This document shows, one piece after another, positions 39,691 through 45,862 of a DNA stretch of 64,000 nucleotides. The position numbers and the translations under genes are program-made. Numbering within the stretch: position 1 is the stretch's first letter; each line of letters opens with the position of its first letter. The notes below the pieces were generated by a model, which saw only the letters and a program-made list of their open reading frames with translations, was not told the origin of the DNA and searched no databases. The stretch lies in sequence record SRR22947727_488. One strand, 5' to 3'.

Positions 39691-41451
39691 TTAATTTTGC
39701 AGATTATAATAAACATTAGATTTATTTTTTATAAGCTCTTCATGGTTACCTTGTTGTATAATATTCCCATTATCTAATACATAGATTCTATCTGCATTTT
39801 TTACAGAATTAAGTCTGTGCGAAATTATTATAGTTGTTTTATTTATTTTAAAATTATTGAGCGATTCTTGTATAGTGCTTTCACTTATTGCATCTAATGC
39901 TGATGTGGCTTCATCCATTAATAAAATTGGTGCATCCCTTAAAAGTGCTCTAGCAATCGATAGTCTTTGTTTTTGTCCGCCGGAAAGACCATATCCATTT
40001 TCACCAAGTACAGTTTCGTAACCAAACGGCAATGCAGTAATAAATTCATGAGCATCTGCTTTCTTGGCTGCATGTACAATATCATCTACAGTAGCTTTGT
40101 TGTTTCCATAACTTAAATTATTAATTACAGTAGTATTAAATAATATTATTTCTTGGGACACTAATGCTATGTTATCACGCAAGTTTTTTATCTTAATATT
40201 CCTTATATCATGCCCATCTATACAAACAGAGCCCGATTTCACATCATAAAGTCTAGGTATTAAATTCATAATTGTAGACTTACCGCTTCCAGAATAGCCT
40301 ACTATGGCAACTGTTTCACCAGGCTGTGCATTTATGGACACTCCATTTAAGGCTAAGGTTCCATCAGGATAATTAAAATGAACATCATTTAAATGAATTT
40401 CTCCACAGAGCTTTCCAATTTCTTGGGAGTTAGCTGTATCTAGAATATTGGCTTCTTCATCAATTACATTAAATATTCTAGTTAGTGCGGAAAGTCCTTC
40501 TTGGGCTACATTGTTAAGTGTTCCAAGCGCTCTTAATTTAGGTGAAAGTATTAACAACCCAGTTAAAACAGCAGCGATTGAACCGGTGCTAGCCGATTCA
40601 TTTGATACTTGATAAACTCCAAAAATGACTACACCCGCTATAGCTAATCCTCCGAGTACTTCTAATATTGGGTCAACTCGAGCTTGTTCTGTAACTAATT
40701 TCATTTGAAGGCGTTCGCGGTCATCAAAATTTTTACTTAACCGTTTGTTTTCTAACATTTCCAAATTGTAAGTTTTTATAATTCTCATATTGTTAAAACT
40801 CTCCTTTAAATTTGAAGTTATTTTACCAACCTGTTCCTGAACATTTTTAGCATCTCCTCGCATACGTTTAGATATTAATAGTACAGGCCAGTATGCTATA
40901 ATAAAAACAGTCATTATCATCGATAATTGCCAGTTTTGATATAACATAGCTAAAATAGTTAGTATAATTGTCAACAAAGCAGCTATTAGGTTCGACATCG
41001 TACGTATTAAGGCATTAGATACCACTGTTATATCATTCGTAAATTTAGAGATTATATCTCCAGATTGTTTTTGTCTAAAGAAACCAAAATCACTTTTGTA
41101 AGTTGATTTTAGCATTTGTTTTTGCATTTTTGTAACTGCTTTTAATGCAATCGAATTGTTTAAAATTCTTTGCAAATAATTAGATAAACCCGAAGTTGCT
41201 GTAATAAAAATTAATAAAGGTAATACAGAAAAAGCGTAATTTTTAGCTTCTTTAATTGTATCATTATTTTTTGTTATATTATTTGCTTCGTCAATAACAA
41301 AGCTTACTATAAATGTATAGGCAGCTGTGGCTGCTGCCAATAATACCATAAATAAAAGAGCTAAAAAAAGCCTTTTCTTTTGAGGCCATATATAGTTGAT
41401 CCATAATCTAGCAATCAAATGATGGTCTTTATTTGAAGTAACTTTAGCCAA
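39691..41451 (-). CDS. msbA: lipid A flippase-type ABC transporter
   Basis: TMD-NBD fusion, GYSGSGKST, LSGGQKQR, MDEATSALD; lipid A context. Confidence 0.8.
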   Translation of the reverse strand: MAKVTSNKDHHLIARLWINYIWPQKKRLFLALLFMVLLAAATAAYTFIVSFVIDEANNITKNNDTIKEAKNYAFSVLPLLIFITATSGLSNYLQRILNNSIALKAVTKMQKQMLKSTYKSDFGFFRQKQSGDIISKFTNDITVVSNALIRTMSNLIAALLTIILTILAMLYQNWQLSMIMTVFIIAYWPVLLISKRMRGDAKNVQEQVGKITSNLKESFNNMRIIKTYNLEMLENKRLSKNFDDRERLQMKLVTEQARVDPILEVLGGLAIAGVVIFGVYQVSNESASTGSIAAVLTGLLILSPKLRALGTLNNVAQEGLSALTRIFNVIDEEANILDTANSQEIGKLCGEIHLNDVHFNYPDGTLALNGVSINAQPGETVAIVGYSGSGKSTIMNLIPRLYDVKSGSVCIDGHDIRNIKIKNLRDNIALVSQEIILFNTTVINNLSYGNNKATVDDIVHAAKKADAHEFITALPFGYETVLGENGYGLSGGQKQRLSIARALLRDAPILLMDEATSALDAISESTIQESLNNFKINKTTIIISHRLNSVKNADRIYVLDNGNIIQQGNHEELIKNKSNVYYNLQN

Positions 41452-42541
41452 TTATACCATCTTTTTTGGGATCAATTAATTCATGCGCATGTAATATAAA
41501 ATAACGCATATGGGCATTGTCAACGGTTTTATGGGCGGAAGCTTTCCAAGCAATATGTGCGGAATGAAAGTCTGGATAAGCGCCAACAAAATCAAGTTTA
41601 TTTAGATTTTTGAATTCTGATTTATTAGGGTCTAAAAGTTCACCACCTATAACAAGGTGAAGAAGTTGTATTTTTTTTCTATCCTCTGATTTAGTTGCCA
41701 TAAATCCAAATTCCTTTATTTTATCAGATGATGTATTAAATTTTTCAACTATTGGGTAAGTTAGGTCTAGTAACAAACCATGAAGATTTTTTCCAGCACA
41801 AATAATTCCTAAACCACTTGTACTACTATTGGCATATGTTGGTACCTTCCCATTAATATTTGAAATATAAGCTCCTGCCTCAGTTGCAATTAATTGGGCT
41901 GCAGCAATATCCCAATCAGATTTTGGAGTAAAAGCAACGGTTGCATCTGCCTTTCCGGATGCAACAAGTGCAATTCTATAAGCCATTGAGTTAACTGTGA
42001 AGCACTTCATTTGCGGCCATTTAAGCTTCTTGAATTTTCGGCTATAGCCTATCATTTTAATATCTTTAACAGATAGTTTATCGGTAGCTTTGATTATCAC
42101 ATTATTTAATTTTGATCCTCCGCCTAAAGTAGCTTCAAACATTTCATTCTTGATGGGATTGTATATTACTGCCACGACTGGGTAGCCATTCTCTATAACT
42201 GCAACAGAAACCACAAAATCTATCGTTCCATCTATAAATGCTTTGGTGCCGTCGATAGGGTCAACCACAAAGGATTTTTTGGCCTTTAGTCTAGAGTTAT
42301 CGTCCTTGGTTTCTTCTGATAGCCACCCATACATAGGGCGATTTTTTTTTAAATATTTAGAGAGGTAATTATTAACTGCTATATCAGCACTAGTAACCTC
42401 ATGACCTCCGCCTTTATCAAATATTTGAGGTTTATTTTTTAAAAAAGCATCTTTAGCGATTTGACCGGCTTTATAGACGACTCGTTTTATAAGTTCTAAG
42501 TCCTTAGAATAACTATCATTTATTTTTTTAGAGACCTGCAA
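41444..42541 (-). CDS. inositol monophosphatase/CysQ-family protein fused to a C-terminal DUF4170-like domain
   Basis: SEE, DPIDGT, WDIAA; tail LLHLVIGGEL...DFVGAYPD...AW...TVDNAHMRYFI. Confidence 0.82.
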   Translation of the reverse strand: MQVSKKINDSYSKDLELIKRVVYKAGQIAKDAFLKNKPQIFDKGGGHEVTSADIAVNNYLSKYLKKNRPMYGWLSEETKDDNSRLKAKKSFVVDPIDGTKAFIDGTIDFVVSVAVIENGYPVVAVIYNPIKNEMFEATLGGGSKLNNVIIKATDKLSVKDIKMIGYSRKFKKLKWPQMKCFTVNSMAYRIALVASGKADATVAFTPKSDWDIAAAQLIATEAGAYISNINGKVPTYANSSTSGLGIICAGKNLHGLLLDLTYPIVEKFNTSSDKIKEFGFMATKSEDRKKIQLLHLVIGGELLDPNKSEFKNLNKLDFVGAYPDFHSAHIAWKASAHKTVDNAHMRYFILHAHELIDPKKDGIIG

Positions 42542-43991: not shown

Positions 43992-44432
43992 TTAAAGGGA
44001 TTTAACATTTTCAGGAGCAGTTTGAAGAAACTTCATAACTACTGAAATTTCTTCTTCTGATAAACCTTTCATCATGCGGTCATTGAAATCACGAAAGTTG
44101 TTCATAATTTTTTCTCTTTCACTCCAGCCTTTTTCTGTAAGAACTACGGCTTTAGAGCGTTTGTCTGAAAAAAGAGGTATGCGTTCGAGTAAAAGTTTTG
44201 TTTCCATTCGCTCAACTAATCCAGTAATTGATGCATTATTTCTTCCAATTGCTTGTGCTAGTTCGGTAAGGCTACAACGGTCGTGATACCCGAGGTAGAT
44301 AAGTACAGCTGCTTGTGAAGTTCCTATTTTTGACGTTTTCTTCAAATAATTTTGAGCTTCTTTAGTAATTAAAGAGTGTGCCCTATCGAAGATAAAATAA
44401 AGTCTTCGATCTATAGGTCTAGCAATTGCCAT
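43992..44432 (-). CDS. MarR family transcriptional regulator
   Basis: ELA, ITGLVERME, DKR, LTEKG winged-helix pattern. Confidence 0.9.
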   Translation of the reverse strand: MAIARPIDRRLYFIFDRAHSLITKEAQNYLKKTSKIGTSQAAVLIYLGYHDRCSLTELAQAIGRNNASITGLVERMETKLLLERIPLFSDKRSKAVVLTEKGWSEREKIMNNFRDFNDRMMKGLSEEEISVVMKFLQTAPENVKSL

Positions 44433-44482
44433 AATGATTCCAGTTATTTTATAATCATAATATGCTTTAAAATATAAATTAC

Positions 44483-44517
44483 AAAAGAAAAAGCCGCCTC
44501 ACGGTATGAGGCGGCTT
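44483..44517 (-). terminator. Rho-independent terminator
   Basis: 11-bp perfect stem AAGCCGCCTCA/TGAGGCGGCTT, 5-nt loop, followed on the minus strand by TTTCTTTT. Confidence 0.88.
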
Positions 44518-44688
44518 AATTTTGAAGTTTGGGCTTTACTAAGTGCTATACTTAGCTTCAAGAAATAATCTCTACCCAGTTTCGCTTTTACGAAAGTGCT
44601 AATTTAATAGCTTAGGGCAAACCCCCCAAAATAGATAAACAAAATCGACCTCCTTTCACAAACGCGGCCTCGGTATGAGACGGCTCTT
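44483..44688 (-). ncRNA. candidate ~205-nt structured RNA (sRNA or marR leader), family not recognised
   Basis: Promoter-like TTGTAT-N16-TACATT, terminal repeats GCCGYCTCATACCG, two tandem hairpin modules, internal GAAAGGAGGT, strong terminator; visibly GC-richer than flanking intergenic DNA. Confidence 0.65.
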
Positions 44689-44694
44689 ATGTAA

Positions 44695-44722
44695 AATGTA
44701 ATTTTTTTTAATAAAAATACAA
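44695..44722 (-). promoter_or_regulatory. candidate sigma70 promoter for the RNA
   Basis: Minus strand TTGTAT (44722-44717), 16-nt spacer, TACATT (44700-44695). Confidence 0.45.
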
Positions 44723-44849
44723 GGCTAAATTTATCTTATCTTTACTATGTGCAGATACTATTTAAACTGAAATATTATCCATTACATAAAGTGACAGTGC
44801 ATTAGCTAACGTGCTGACATGTAATTCTCTAGGAAAACAAAGTCCGAAA

Positions 44850-45335
44850 TTATCGGGCAGAACGGCTAACACGCATGGGATCATCCAGAGCAATGATCAC
44901 GGGTTCAAGGTCAGCCGGACCTGGAGCTGTATAGCGCACTCCATCAAAGGGTTCCGGTCCGGGGCCCCCTGGGTTGAAGAAGGCGCTGTATCCACCTTCA
45001 AGTGCGGGAATTTCGACGAAGGTTACATTACGTGCCGCCGCTTCATCTCCGGTGAGAATGATATCGATATAGTTGTCGCGATCTTCGTTGTAACAGTCAT
45101 CGTAATAAATGCCAGCATCCGGATCACGGCGTTAGCCCAAATCTGCGAGGCCTAACACCCGGAAAGTACCGCCTTCGACCTGATAATCTTGGCCGACTTT
45201 TTTTAGAAGAACGGTTTCGCCATTGGCCCCTCGCAGATGGATATGGAAAAAACTTTCATAACTATCTGGGGTCAATGACCGCAATCCATCGGGGGAGAAA
45301 CCACCCGTTGTTAAAACCCGCAGCCGATAATCTGC
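44850..45335 (-). pseudogene. GC-rich 3' gene fragment of unknown family with one internal stop
   Basis: 162-codon frame ADYRLRVLTTGGFSPDG...VLGLADLG*RRDPDAGIYYDDCYNEDRDNYIDIIL...FFNPGGPGPEPFDGVRYTAPGP...DDPMRVSRSAR*; TAA at 45134-45132; no start; 37/60 G+C in 44941-45000. Confidence 0.8.
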
Positions 45336-45337
45336 AA

Positions 45338-45862
45338 CTATGAGGGAACAAATTTAAGAGCTACTCCATTGTTGCAATATCTAAGACCGGTTGGATTTGG
45401 ACCATCCTTGAATACGTGGCCTTGATGACCCTTGCAACAGCTGCAGTGATATTCAGTTCGGGTCATAAAAAGCTTCTTGTCAGTTTTAGTACCAATATTC
45501 TCATGAATGACATCATAGAAACTTGGCCAGCCAGTTCCAGATTCATACTTATGCTCAGATTTAAATAGCGGTTGATTGCATCCAGCACAATTATACTGAC
45601 CGCTCCTTTTTTCCCAGTTGAGTTCAGAAGTTCCTGGTCTTTCAGTACCCTCTCTCCGTAAAACTGCGTATTCTAGAGATGTTAATCTGCTCTTCCATTC
45701 AGATTCTGGTATATTTATACATTTTGTATCATCCATCTTTGCATTCCCATATAATTCTGTGGAGTTAGTCTTCTTGCACGACAATAATAAAACAGCAATT
45801 AACTGCATTGATATGCTTCGTCTTGATGCTGTATATTTAAATTTTTTTTTGATCATTTCCAT
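45338..45862 (-). CDS. msrB: peptide-methionine (R)-S-oxide reductase with export signal
   Basis: GTERP, CAGC, SGTGWPSF, CSCC.GH.GHVF.DGP.PTGLRYCNNG. Confidence 0.95.
   Translation of the reverse strand: MEMIKKKFKYTASRRSISMQLIAVLLLSCKKTNSTELYGNAKMDDTKCINIPESEWKSRLTSLEYAVLRREGTERPGTSELNWEKRSGQYNCAGCNQPLFKSEHKYESGTGWPSFYDVIHENIGTKTDKKLFMTRTEYHCSCCKGHQGHVFKDGPNPTGLRYCNNGVALKFVPS

Follow-up and report, generated by a model that had tools for sequence, protein, structure and literature searches.

What kind of RNA is encoded between msrB and marR in sequence record SRR22947727_488, and what might it do? In the 64,000-nucleotide (nt) stretch of this record that was analysed (hereafter the window), the original prediction had placed an unannotated structured RNA, served by a promoter and a terminator of its own, on the minus strand upstream of marR, and had read it as a trans-acting small RNA (sRNA), a cis attenuator of marR, or a sponge for sRNAs that pair with Shine-Dalgarno (SD) sequences. 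We find that the RNA is a previously undescribed family of independently transcribed, highly structured sRNA that is limited to one clade. The structured RNA, its absence from Rfam and the central role of an SD-like element all held up, while the marR attenuator and the anti-SD sponge did not. As to function, we would give even chances to an RNA that engages ribosomes, either as a switch operated by a translated mini-open reading frame (mini-ORF) or as a decoy for the 30S subunit, a function inferred from sequence.

44483..44688, minus strand: the whole RNA, ~205 nt, from the presumed +1 (A44688) to the end of the U tract.
44695..44722, minus strand: promoter, with -35 TTGTAT at 44722-44717, a 16-nt spacer and -10 TACATT at 44700-44695.
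44483..44517, minus strand: intrinsic terminator, a 12-bp stem with 7 G-C pairs and a 3-nt loop (44517-44491), followed by the U tract TTTCTTTTGT.

The sequence elements of such a gene could all be located on the minus strand: it is a single-copy RNA gene 3' of msrB with its own sigma-70-type promoter and intrinsic terminator, and the RNA begins, near A44688, with AAGAGCCGUCUCAUACCGAGGCCGCG. The predicted 5' hairpin sequence AGAGCCGUCUCAUACCGAGGCCGCG is present, as is the central SD-like GAAAGGAGGU at 44657-44648, which turned out to be the key conserved element. Both promoter hexamers are where they had been placed, but the site is too weak to be listed by a promoter scan. The terminator stem has 12 pairs as counted by the terminator scan, not the 11 bp first given, and its U tract stops ~50 nt 5' of the marR ATG (44432). 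What had been described as two repeated hairpin modules corresponds to the 5' hairpin and the terminator, which are alike in the window strain but less so in relatives. No ORF of 30 or more amino acids overlaps 44483-44688 on either strand. The minimum free energy (MFE) of the RNA is -67 kcal/mol, compared with -50.4 +/- 4.3 kcal/mol for shuffled sequences (z -3.86), and 0/200 shuffles fold as well.

Rfam 15 at gathering thresholds returned no match in the whole window, in keeping with the expectation that the RNA is not tRNA, tmRNA, 6S or another known family. At E up to 10, the region 44300-44950 gave 24 sub-threshold matches, the best of which reached 31.1 bits where 49 are required; in the three alignments displayed, it is mainly the terminator hairpin that is matched. 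The 6S model (RF00013) matches other loci (48.6 bits in G003 and 41.6 bits in G001, the genome nearest to the window, with 85% of the window's sampled words in common), and 6S RNA is rod-like with paired 5' and 3' ends, whereas the RNA described here has a hairpin junction and a free terminator. Two-piece alphaproteobacterial tmRNA (RF01849) is likewise found elsewhere in G001 and G003, at 258-260 bits, and scores only 7.4 bits at the RNA locus, on the opposite strand. A survey-level search of the literature brought up no sRNA from these genera and no SD-mimicking 30S decoy.

We wondered how widely the RNA is distributed. A DNA search with window positions 44000-44900 (901 nt) matched 19 of 41 relatives, including all 17 genomes of the same genus. 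Several of these matches cover the RNA stretch alone (query 232-413 in G017, G016, G008 and G005; 217-413 in G003): only the RNA part aligns there, so that in these genomes conservation of the RNA exceeds that of the protein-coding genes beside it. A covariance model, R1, was built without the terminator from 17 sequences (alignments A1 and A2). It covers 44519-44686 of the window with 182 bits (E 9e-45), and it yields a single full-length match per genome in 54 of the 151 genomes sampled in the family, at E 1e-26 to 1e-48. Carriers fall into seven of the 26 genera sampled (g1 11/12, g2 7/7, g5 3/3, g21 12/12, g31 5/5, g34 6/7 and g35 10/11), with no R1 match in the other 19. In G013, the g1 genome that was missed (82% complete), a contig end truncates the copy. 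A permissive search of five non-carrier genera gave only noise (E ~1, 14-15 bits, in two of five genomes). In a sample of the order, R1 matched 5/9 genomes of the family and 0/32 genomes of five other families, even at E up to 1.

A scan with an exact pattern through one genome per species of all bacteria and archaea returned at least 82 loci; this is a lower bound because the pattern demanded a 5-6-nt spacer after the SD and missed copies with 4 nt. The record titles of the 82 loci are Hellea, Litorimonas, Algimonas and Robiginitomaculum, or uncultured metagenome-assembled genomes labelled Caulobacterales, Hyphomonadaceae, Maricaulaceae, Alphaproteobacteria or Pseudomonadota. R1 matches all of these loci and the window (83/83). 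CrfA of Caulobacter, with which the RNA had been loosely compared, is a trans-acting sRNA from the same order, Caulobacterales. The likeness is one of analogy only: no Rfam family matches the locus, and no homologue of the RNA was found outside the seven genera.

The relatives that carry homologues also display helices that covary beyond shuffled controls, so the expectation of a conserved structure was borne out. The consensus fold consists of a 5' hairpin (P1), an unpaired linker and a long-range helix (P2) that closes a junction of P3-P6, followed by the terminator.

44664..44684, minus strand: P1, the 5' hairpin (GCCGUCUC / GAGGCCGC), 7 pairs, 3 of them with compensatory changes, 99.5% paired across 82 sequences.
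44615..44631, minus strand: P2 5' strand (UUUUGGGGGGUUUGCCC), overlapping codons 4-10 of the mini-frame described below.
44520..44536, minus strand: P2 3' strand (AAAGCCCAAACUUCAAAA), partner of 44615-44631.
44598..44611, minus strand: P3 hairpin (GCUA UUAAAU UAGC), whose loop holds the stop codon of the mini-frame, 99.7% paired, 2/4 pairs with compensatory changes.
44580..44596, minus strand: P4 hairpin (CUUUCG UAAAAG CGAAA), 92% paired.
44560..44573, minus strand: P5 hairpin (AGAG...UCUU), 4/4 pairs with compensatory changes, loop UAUCUA in most relatives.
44538..44556, minus strand: P6 hairpin (GCUAAGU AUAGC ACUUAGU), 6/6 pairs with compensatory changes.

RNAalifold, run on the MAFFT alignment A1, which is independent of the model, gave 56 pairs, 18 of them with compensatory changes. 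Across 82 distinct sequences, 96.4% of the cells are paired, as opposed to 32-59% with slid partners; compensatory changes support 22 of the 44 pairs, and the 283 compensatory cells compare with 65 +/- 6 in shuffles, of which 0/500 reach this number. The 55 sequences selected by the covariance model, and not by the SD pattern, behave the same way (96.6% of cells paired versus 33-57%; 19/44 pairs; 198 compensatory cells versus 51 +/- 5, reached by 0/500 shuffles). Both of these alignments were fitted to the model and hence favour its structure, but the independent result from MAFFT and RNAalifold agrees. The consensus fold, in which the SD is open, is thus well supported. In P2, 44615-44631 pairs with 44520-44536 and with GGGU at 44574-44577 (consensus UUUUGRGGGGUCUGCCC with GGGU and AGACCC...CUUCAAAA); helices 2-4 are 96-97% paired, with compensatory changes in 5/17 pairs. 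Some lineages have loop insertions of ~25-45 nt (~33 nt in P4, up to ~45 nt in P5), as real structured RNAs usually do. A kissing pair between the loops of P3 (UUARAU) and P5 (AUCUA) was rejected on reading the alignment: it is without covariation because the loop purine varies while AUCU does not.

44648..44657, minus strand: extended SD GAAAGGAGGU, a 10-nt perfect complement of the 16S rRNA 3' tail, unpaired in the covariation-supported fold.
44604..44642, minus strand: mini-frame, UUG at 44642-44640, 11 more codons and the stop UAA at 44606-44604, preceded by a 5-nt spacer at 44647-44643.

The best-conserved unpaired stretch of the RNA is GAAAGGAGGU. Among the 55 model-selected sequences, the 10-mer reads GAAAGGAGGT in 50, GAGAGGAGGT in four and GGAAGGAGGT in one; the changes are all A-to-G, so that a wobble pair with U stays. 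We searched for its complement, ACCTCCTTTC, in five genomes that are 97-100% complete. It occurs opposite the RNA, as the last bases of the 16S gene (the Rfam model of the small-subunit rRNA ends at this match), and once more in G146 (L171, G146:C1:799245-799254), which no Rfam family matches. Since ACCTCCTTTC is restricted to these sites, the 10-mer in sense orientation is unique to the RNA in each of the five genomes. The predicted duplex between the SD and the 16S tail has an energy of -16.5 kcal/mol, and freeing the SD through the UUG is calculated to cost 6.6 +/- 2.0 kcal/mol (range 3.1-11.2; n=79).

The same complement search bears on the sponge for anti-SD sRNAs: besides the RNA's own antisense and the one site in G146, the 16S 3' tail is the only perfect complement of the 10-mer. 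Occurrences of CCUCCUCCC are close in number to those of a reversed control (8 versus 4 in G001, 12 versus 10 in G066 and 9 versus 17 in G012), and the sites listed are all at least ~17 kb apart on the same contig, so no cluster of several motifs is seen. The sponge thus finds no backing here.

The sequence downstream of the SD is arranged as a start site. TTG is present in 55/55 sequences, at a distance of 5 nt from the SD in 53 and 4 nt in two, and the sequence of this spacer is free. An in-frame stop, always TAA or TAG and always in the P3 loop, ends the frame in 55/55, after 12 codons in 53 and 11 in two. SD, start and in-frame stop, by which small-ORF sRNAs are judged, are accordingly conserved throughout the set. 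The encoded peptide reads MFIYFGGFALSY in the window, and most relatives have MFICFEGSARSC or MSIYFEGSARSC. Departures from the consensus in sense codons come to 17 cells for first positions, 88 for second and 19 for third positions, the substitutions are radical (F/S, C/Y/F, R/Q/L), and the variable bases of the frame are those that are unpaired in both candidate folds. Codon-position counts in the 55 sequences give no sign of purifying selection on the peptide, and by this measure the frame does not evolve like coding sequence. Another frame, starting from an AUG or GUG inside UUAUGAAAGG, was considered and rejected: one-base spacer deletions break it in G007 and G004, and several genera have UCG, ACG or GAG in place of its start codon.

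The SD can also be drawn into a second structure. In single-sequence MFE folds, GAAAG(G) pairs with (C)CUUUC of the P4 5' strand, and AGGU with AUCU. This closed fold has 91% of its cells paired and 3 compensatory cells versus 2.5 in shuffles, a number that 236/500 shuffles reach; covariation cannot test it, because its partner segments are invariant. When the SD was forced open, the MFE structure was the covariation-supported fold in the relatives L131, L150 and L108 among the four sequences printed, while the window's own sequence did not give it. Because the alternative fold can hide the SD, ribosome access to the RNA may be conditional. Such an arrangement recalls SD-sequestering switches, which include RNA thermometers, riboswitch expression platforms and type I toxin mRNAs: here too internal segments (CCUUUC, AUCU) could serve as an anti-SD, and little energy separates the open from the closed fold. 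It differs from them in that the controlled frame is 12 codons inside the structure, and in that the closed fold is without covariation support. A type I toxin mRNA as such was rejected: toxin peptides of this type are hydrophobic and need ~18 amino acids or more to span the membrane, and the frame of 12 codons (53/55) or 11 codons (2/55) is too short.

What, then, could an RNA with these features do? As its 10-mer is the only perfect ribosome-docking sequence in the genomes, it would probably engage ribosomes rather than encode a normal protein, and a spacer of fixed length but free sequence, together with the invariant start and stop, separates this reading from a base-pairing seed. In the mechanism that we consider, a 30S subunit would dock on the perfect SD, and the ribosome, starting at the UUG and reading the 12 codons, would open P2 and P3, so that its engagement would switch the shape of the RNA. 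Alternatively, the over-long SD and weak start could hold the subunit, making the RNA a decoy. What counts is probably not the peptide as such, and docking may be conditional, as the closed fold (GAAAG:CUUUC, AGGU:AUCU) would hide the SD.

Several points weigh against ribosome engagement. UUG is a weak start codon. Single-sequence ensembles mostly pair the SD, with a mean probability of 0.24 that it is unpaired (n=79). Changes concentrate at second codon positions (88 versus 19 at third), and constraints at the RNA level alone could therefore explain every conserved base. A decoy would need to be highly abundant, and contigs cannot measure abundance. Finally, hfq is encoded in 5/5 genomes, and the U-rich linker and terminator tail are as in base-pairing sRNAs.

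A more specific form of the decoy, which we regard as a long shot, would make the RNA a translational counterpart of 6S: an abundant molecule that would hold or cap idle 30S subunits by pairing with the final 10-11 nt of their 16S rRNA. The weak UUG and over-long SD would slow clearance, the alternative fold would make the trap conditional, and the ~one 16S 3' base left unpaired means that the duplex could shield the tail from 3'-to-5' exonucleases in starvation. 6S RNA is a molecular-mimic decoy for RNA polymerase, and CsrB/RsmZ is one for CsrA; the RNA resembles both in presenting what a cellular machine recognises, in this case an ideal mRNA start site. It differs from them in that binding of the 30S is surmised from sequence, 6S is present elsewhere in the genome and no CsrA gene was found in five genomes.

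The main rival to ribosome engagement, unlikely on balance though worth serious attention, is an Hfq-dependent sRNA that base-pairs in trans through the linker GAAAGGAGGU ... UUGUYUAUCU. This seed would pair with CU-rich parts of mRNA leaders, for example freeing the SD of a target as an anti-antisense, or would sponge other sRNAs, as in the original prediction. Such a role fits a gene that stands alone and ends in a Rho-independent terminator with U tail, as well as the U-rich, single-stranded linker and the presence of hfq in 5/5 genomes; synteny that is kept upstream while the downstream gene varies is also usual for sRNA genes. Yet a seed needs neither a fixed-length spacer of free sequence nor an invariant start codon, no clustered anti-SD motifs are seen, and the 10-mer is without a perfect complement outside 16S in four of the five genomes, shorter or imperfect targets not having been searched.

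That the RNA is a small mRNA, with the 12-residue peptide as functional product and the structure serving only to control translation, seems improbable. The perfect SD, optimal spacer, start codon and in-frame stop are found in 55/55 sequences, and residues 1, 3, 5 and 7 (M, I, F and G) are invariant. These residues, however, coincide with bases constrained by pairing, and radical substitutions at second positions alongside third positions that hardly vary are the opposite of what selection on a peptide produces. Known dual-function or small-ORF sRNAs such as SgrS/SgrT, RNAIII/delta-haemolysin and SR1/SR1P likewise combine a stand-alone sRNA gene and terminator with a ribosome-binding site and a short frame. 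The RNA described here departs from them in its frame of 12 codons with non-coding-like changes, its genome-unique 10-nt SD and the absence of any relationship in sequence or in Rfam.

The attenuator in cis, in which read-through past the terminator into marR would hinge on whether the mini-frame is translated, can be judged by the genes around the RNA.

45338..45862, minus strand: msrB (SelR domain; Pfam SelR, E 2.5e-46), the upstream neighbour.
43992..44432, minus strand: marR (Pfam MarR, E 1.7e-8), the downstream neighbour in the window.

We compared one flanking ORF per side at 55 loci (107 ORFs; two loci are without an upstream ORF and one without a downstream ORF). The upstream ORF is MsrB-like and on the same strand in 42/53 loci. 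Downstream, MarR is found in 22/54, on the same strand and in several genera, which is what a short frame and terminator 5' of marR would call for in an attenuator. Yet the downstream ORF is something else in 32/54 (RpoN, sigma-54, in nine) and lies on the opposite strand in 13/54, where it is for example a pseudouridine synthase or a ZIP transporter. With so variable a downstream gene, a leader for any single one is unlikely. The marR gene moreover has its own promoter-like site (TTGTAA-16-TATTAT, 44484-44457), as had been predicted and as the promoter scan also lists (9/12 positions), and no antiterminator pairing was noticed in the alignments or MFE folds, although no dedicated search was run. 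The attenuator of marR is thus very unlikely. A fitting comparison is rnTrpL/peTrpL of Sinorhizobium, an attenuator sRNA from the trp leader which encodes a 14-residue leader peptide and can act in trans. It too is a short alphaproteobacterial RNA with a tiny frame and a terminator; the present RNA differs in having no constant downstream gene, no Trp codons and no Rfam match.

We hold in equally low regard the proposal that the structured RNA has another job, such as binding a ligand or protein, and that GAAAGGAGGU is kept for its internal pairing with CCUUUC and AUCU, its likeness to an SD being incidental. Single-sequence folds do pair the SD in most sequences with partner segments that never vary, and the junction is rich in invariant unpaired bases. 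On the other side, a 10/10 match to the 16S tail combined with a correctly spaced, invariant start codon is unlikely by accident, and the closed helices are without covariation (3 cells versus 2.5 in shuffles) while the SD-open fold covaries. A sponge for a protein of the CsrA/RsmA type can be all but dismissed: AAGGAGG contains GGA, the core of CsrA sites, but it is the only conserved GGA in the RNA, where CsrB/RsmZ-type RNAs have many GGA loops, and a CsrA gene (PF02599) was found in 0/5 genomes of 97-100% completeness, which contradicts such a role.

The sequences thus define a new, well-supported structured RNA family: more than 80 members are aligned, a covariance model describes them, and the taxonomic limits are clear. 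Its hosts are cultivable, alga-associated marine Caulobacterales. Its centre is unusual in placing a genome-unique perfect SD, an invariant UUG and a frame with non-coding-like changes within a fold that could hide or expose them. If ribosome engagement is true, the RNA would be a translation-coupled switch of new design or an RNA that sequesters 30S subunits; if it is an ordinary Hfq-dependent sRNA, the family is still useful for annotating these genomes.

The promoter of the RNA gene could be followed in relatives. At the -35 position, TTGCCA stands in 28 of 80 distinct loci, TTGCAA in 9 and TTGTCA in 8, and the -35-like TTG starts 36-41 nt 5' of the model start in 75 of the 78 loci having TTG. 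An 18-nt A/T-rich sequence, AAATTTCATAAAATTTCA, abuts the -35 in 42/80 loci (with up to 4 mismatches) versus 6/1600 shuffles, for example upstream of L150, L147 and L110; it can be read as a direct repeat and also as a partial palindrome, and is degenerate in the window's own subclade (window 44727-44745). Judged from its position, it could be an UP element or a site for an activator or other regulator. Beyond the sRNA promoter, few sites with 0-2 mismatches to AAATTTCATAAAATTTCA occur in five genomes, and no common neighbour gene was recognised.

A terminator hairpin lies 3' of the core in 83/83 aligned loci, with the loop AUAC(U/C)GU in most, and its stem covaries (RNAalifold on A1). A loose search for the loop AUACUGU as an element dispersed in the genome gave counts similar to a reversed control (for example 10 versus 13 in G001 and 30 versus 45 in G012), and it is therefore not a dispersed element. 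In seven relatives (L131, L077, L103, L113, L148, L130 and L122), the terminator is followed by a G+C-rich hairpin and then by a second hairpin with the same loop, (C/G)AUACUGU(G/C); these extra hairpins may form either a tandem terminator or another small module.

Traces of the transcript were sought in assembled RNA libraries. Parts of the region are present in RNA libraries of several studies, and the contigs of four runs were examined. A metatranscriptome (X16) has a single 175-nt contig which covers 44530-44688 only and leaves the genome at 44688 (16 loose letters), the +1 expected from the -10 hexamer. This supports a 5' end at 44688 as a weak hint, because it is one contig at depth 2. 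Of the two RNA ends that had been predicted, only the 5' end is therefore touched by these data, as contig breaks near the 3' side give no 3' end: the contigs of X5 and X16 both end at 44530, those of X1 break at 44469-44498, and X14 covers only marR. We attribute the breaks near 44530 and at 44469-44498 to an effect of the terminator palindrome on assembly, and stretches left uncovered by every run carry no weight as evidence. On the plus strand, a promoter-like TTGCCA-18-TATAAT at 44426-44455 (11/12 positions) points antisense into the terminator; it may be due to chance, since its TTGCCA complements the first codons of marR.

Between msrB and the sRNA promoter, the window displays a G+C-rich island (44790-45326; 50-54% versus ~30-40% around it), whereas in relatives msrB ends 50-170 nt before the RNA. 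The island is polymorphic: an X5 contig joins 44789 to 45327 via 78 other letters, and X1 contigs have loose ends at both borders. Inside it, a single stop separates two open stretches of 73 and 93 codons that share a frame and have no Pfam match, and the island is probably a decaying fragment of foreign DNA. Farther out, Pfam identifies UbiA beyond msrB, and PmbA/TldD and an inositol monophosphatase downstream of marR. The ORF of the inositol monophosphatase family (41444-42541, minus strand) has a C-terminal DUF4170 domain; its true start may lie further in, because the start as listed was set at the TTG that comes first behind a stop.

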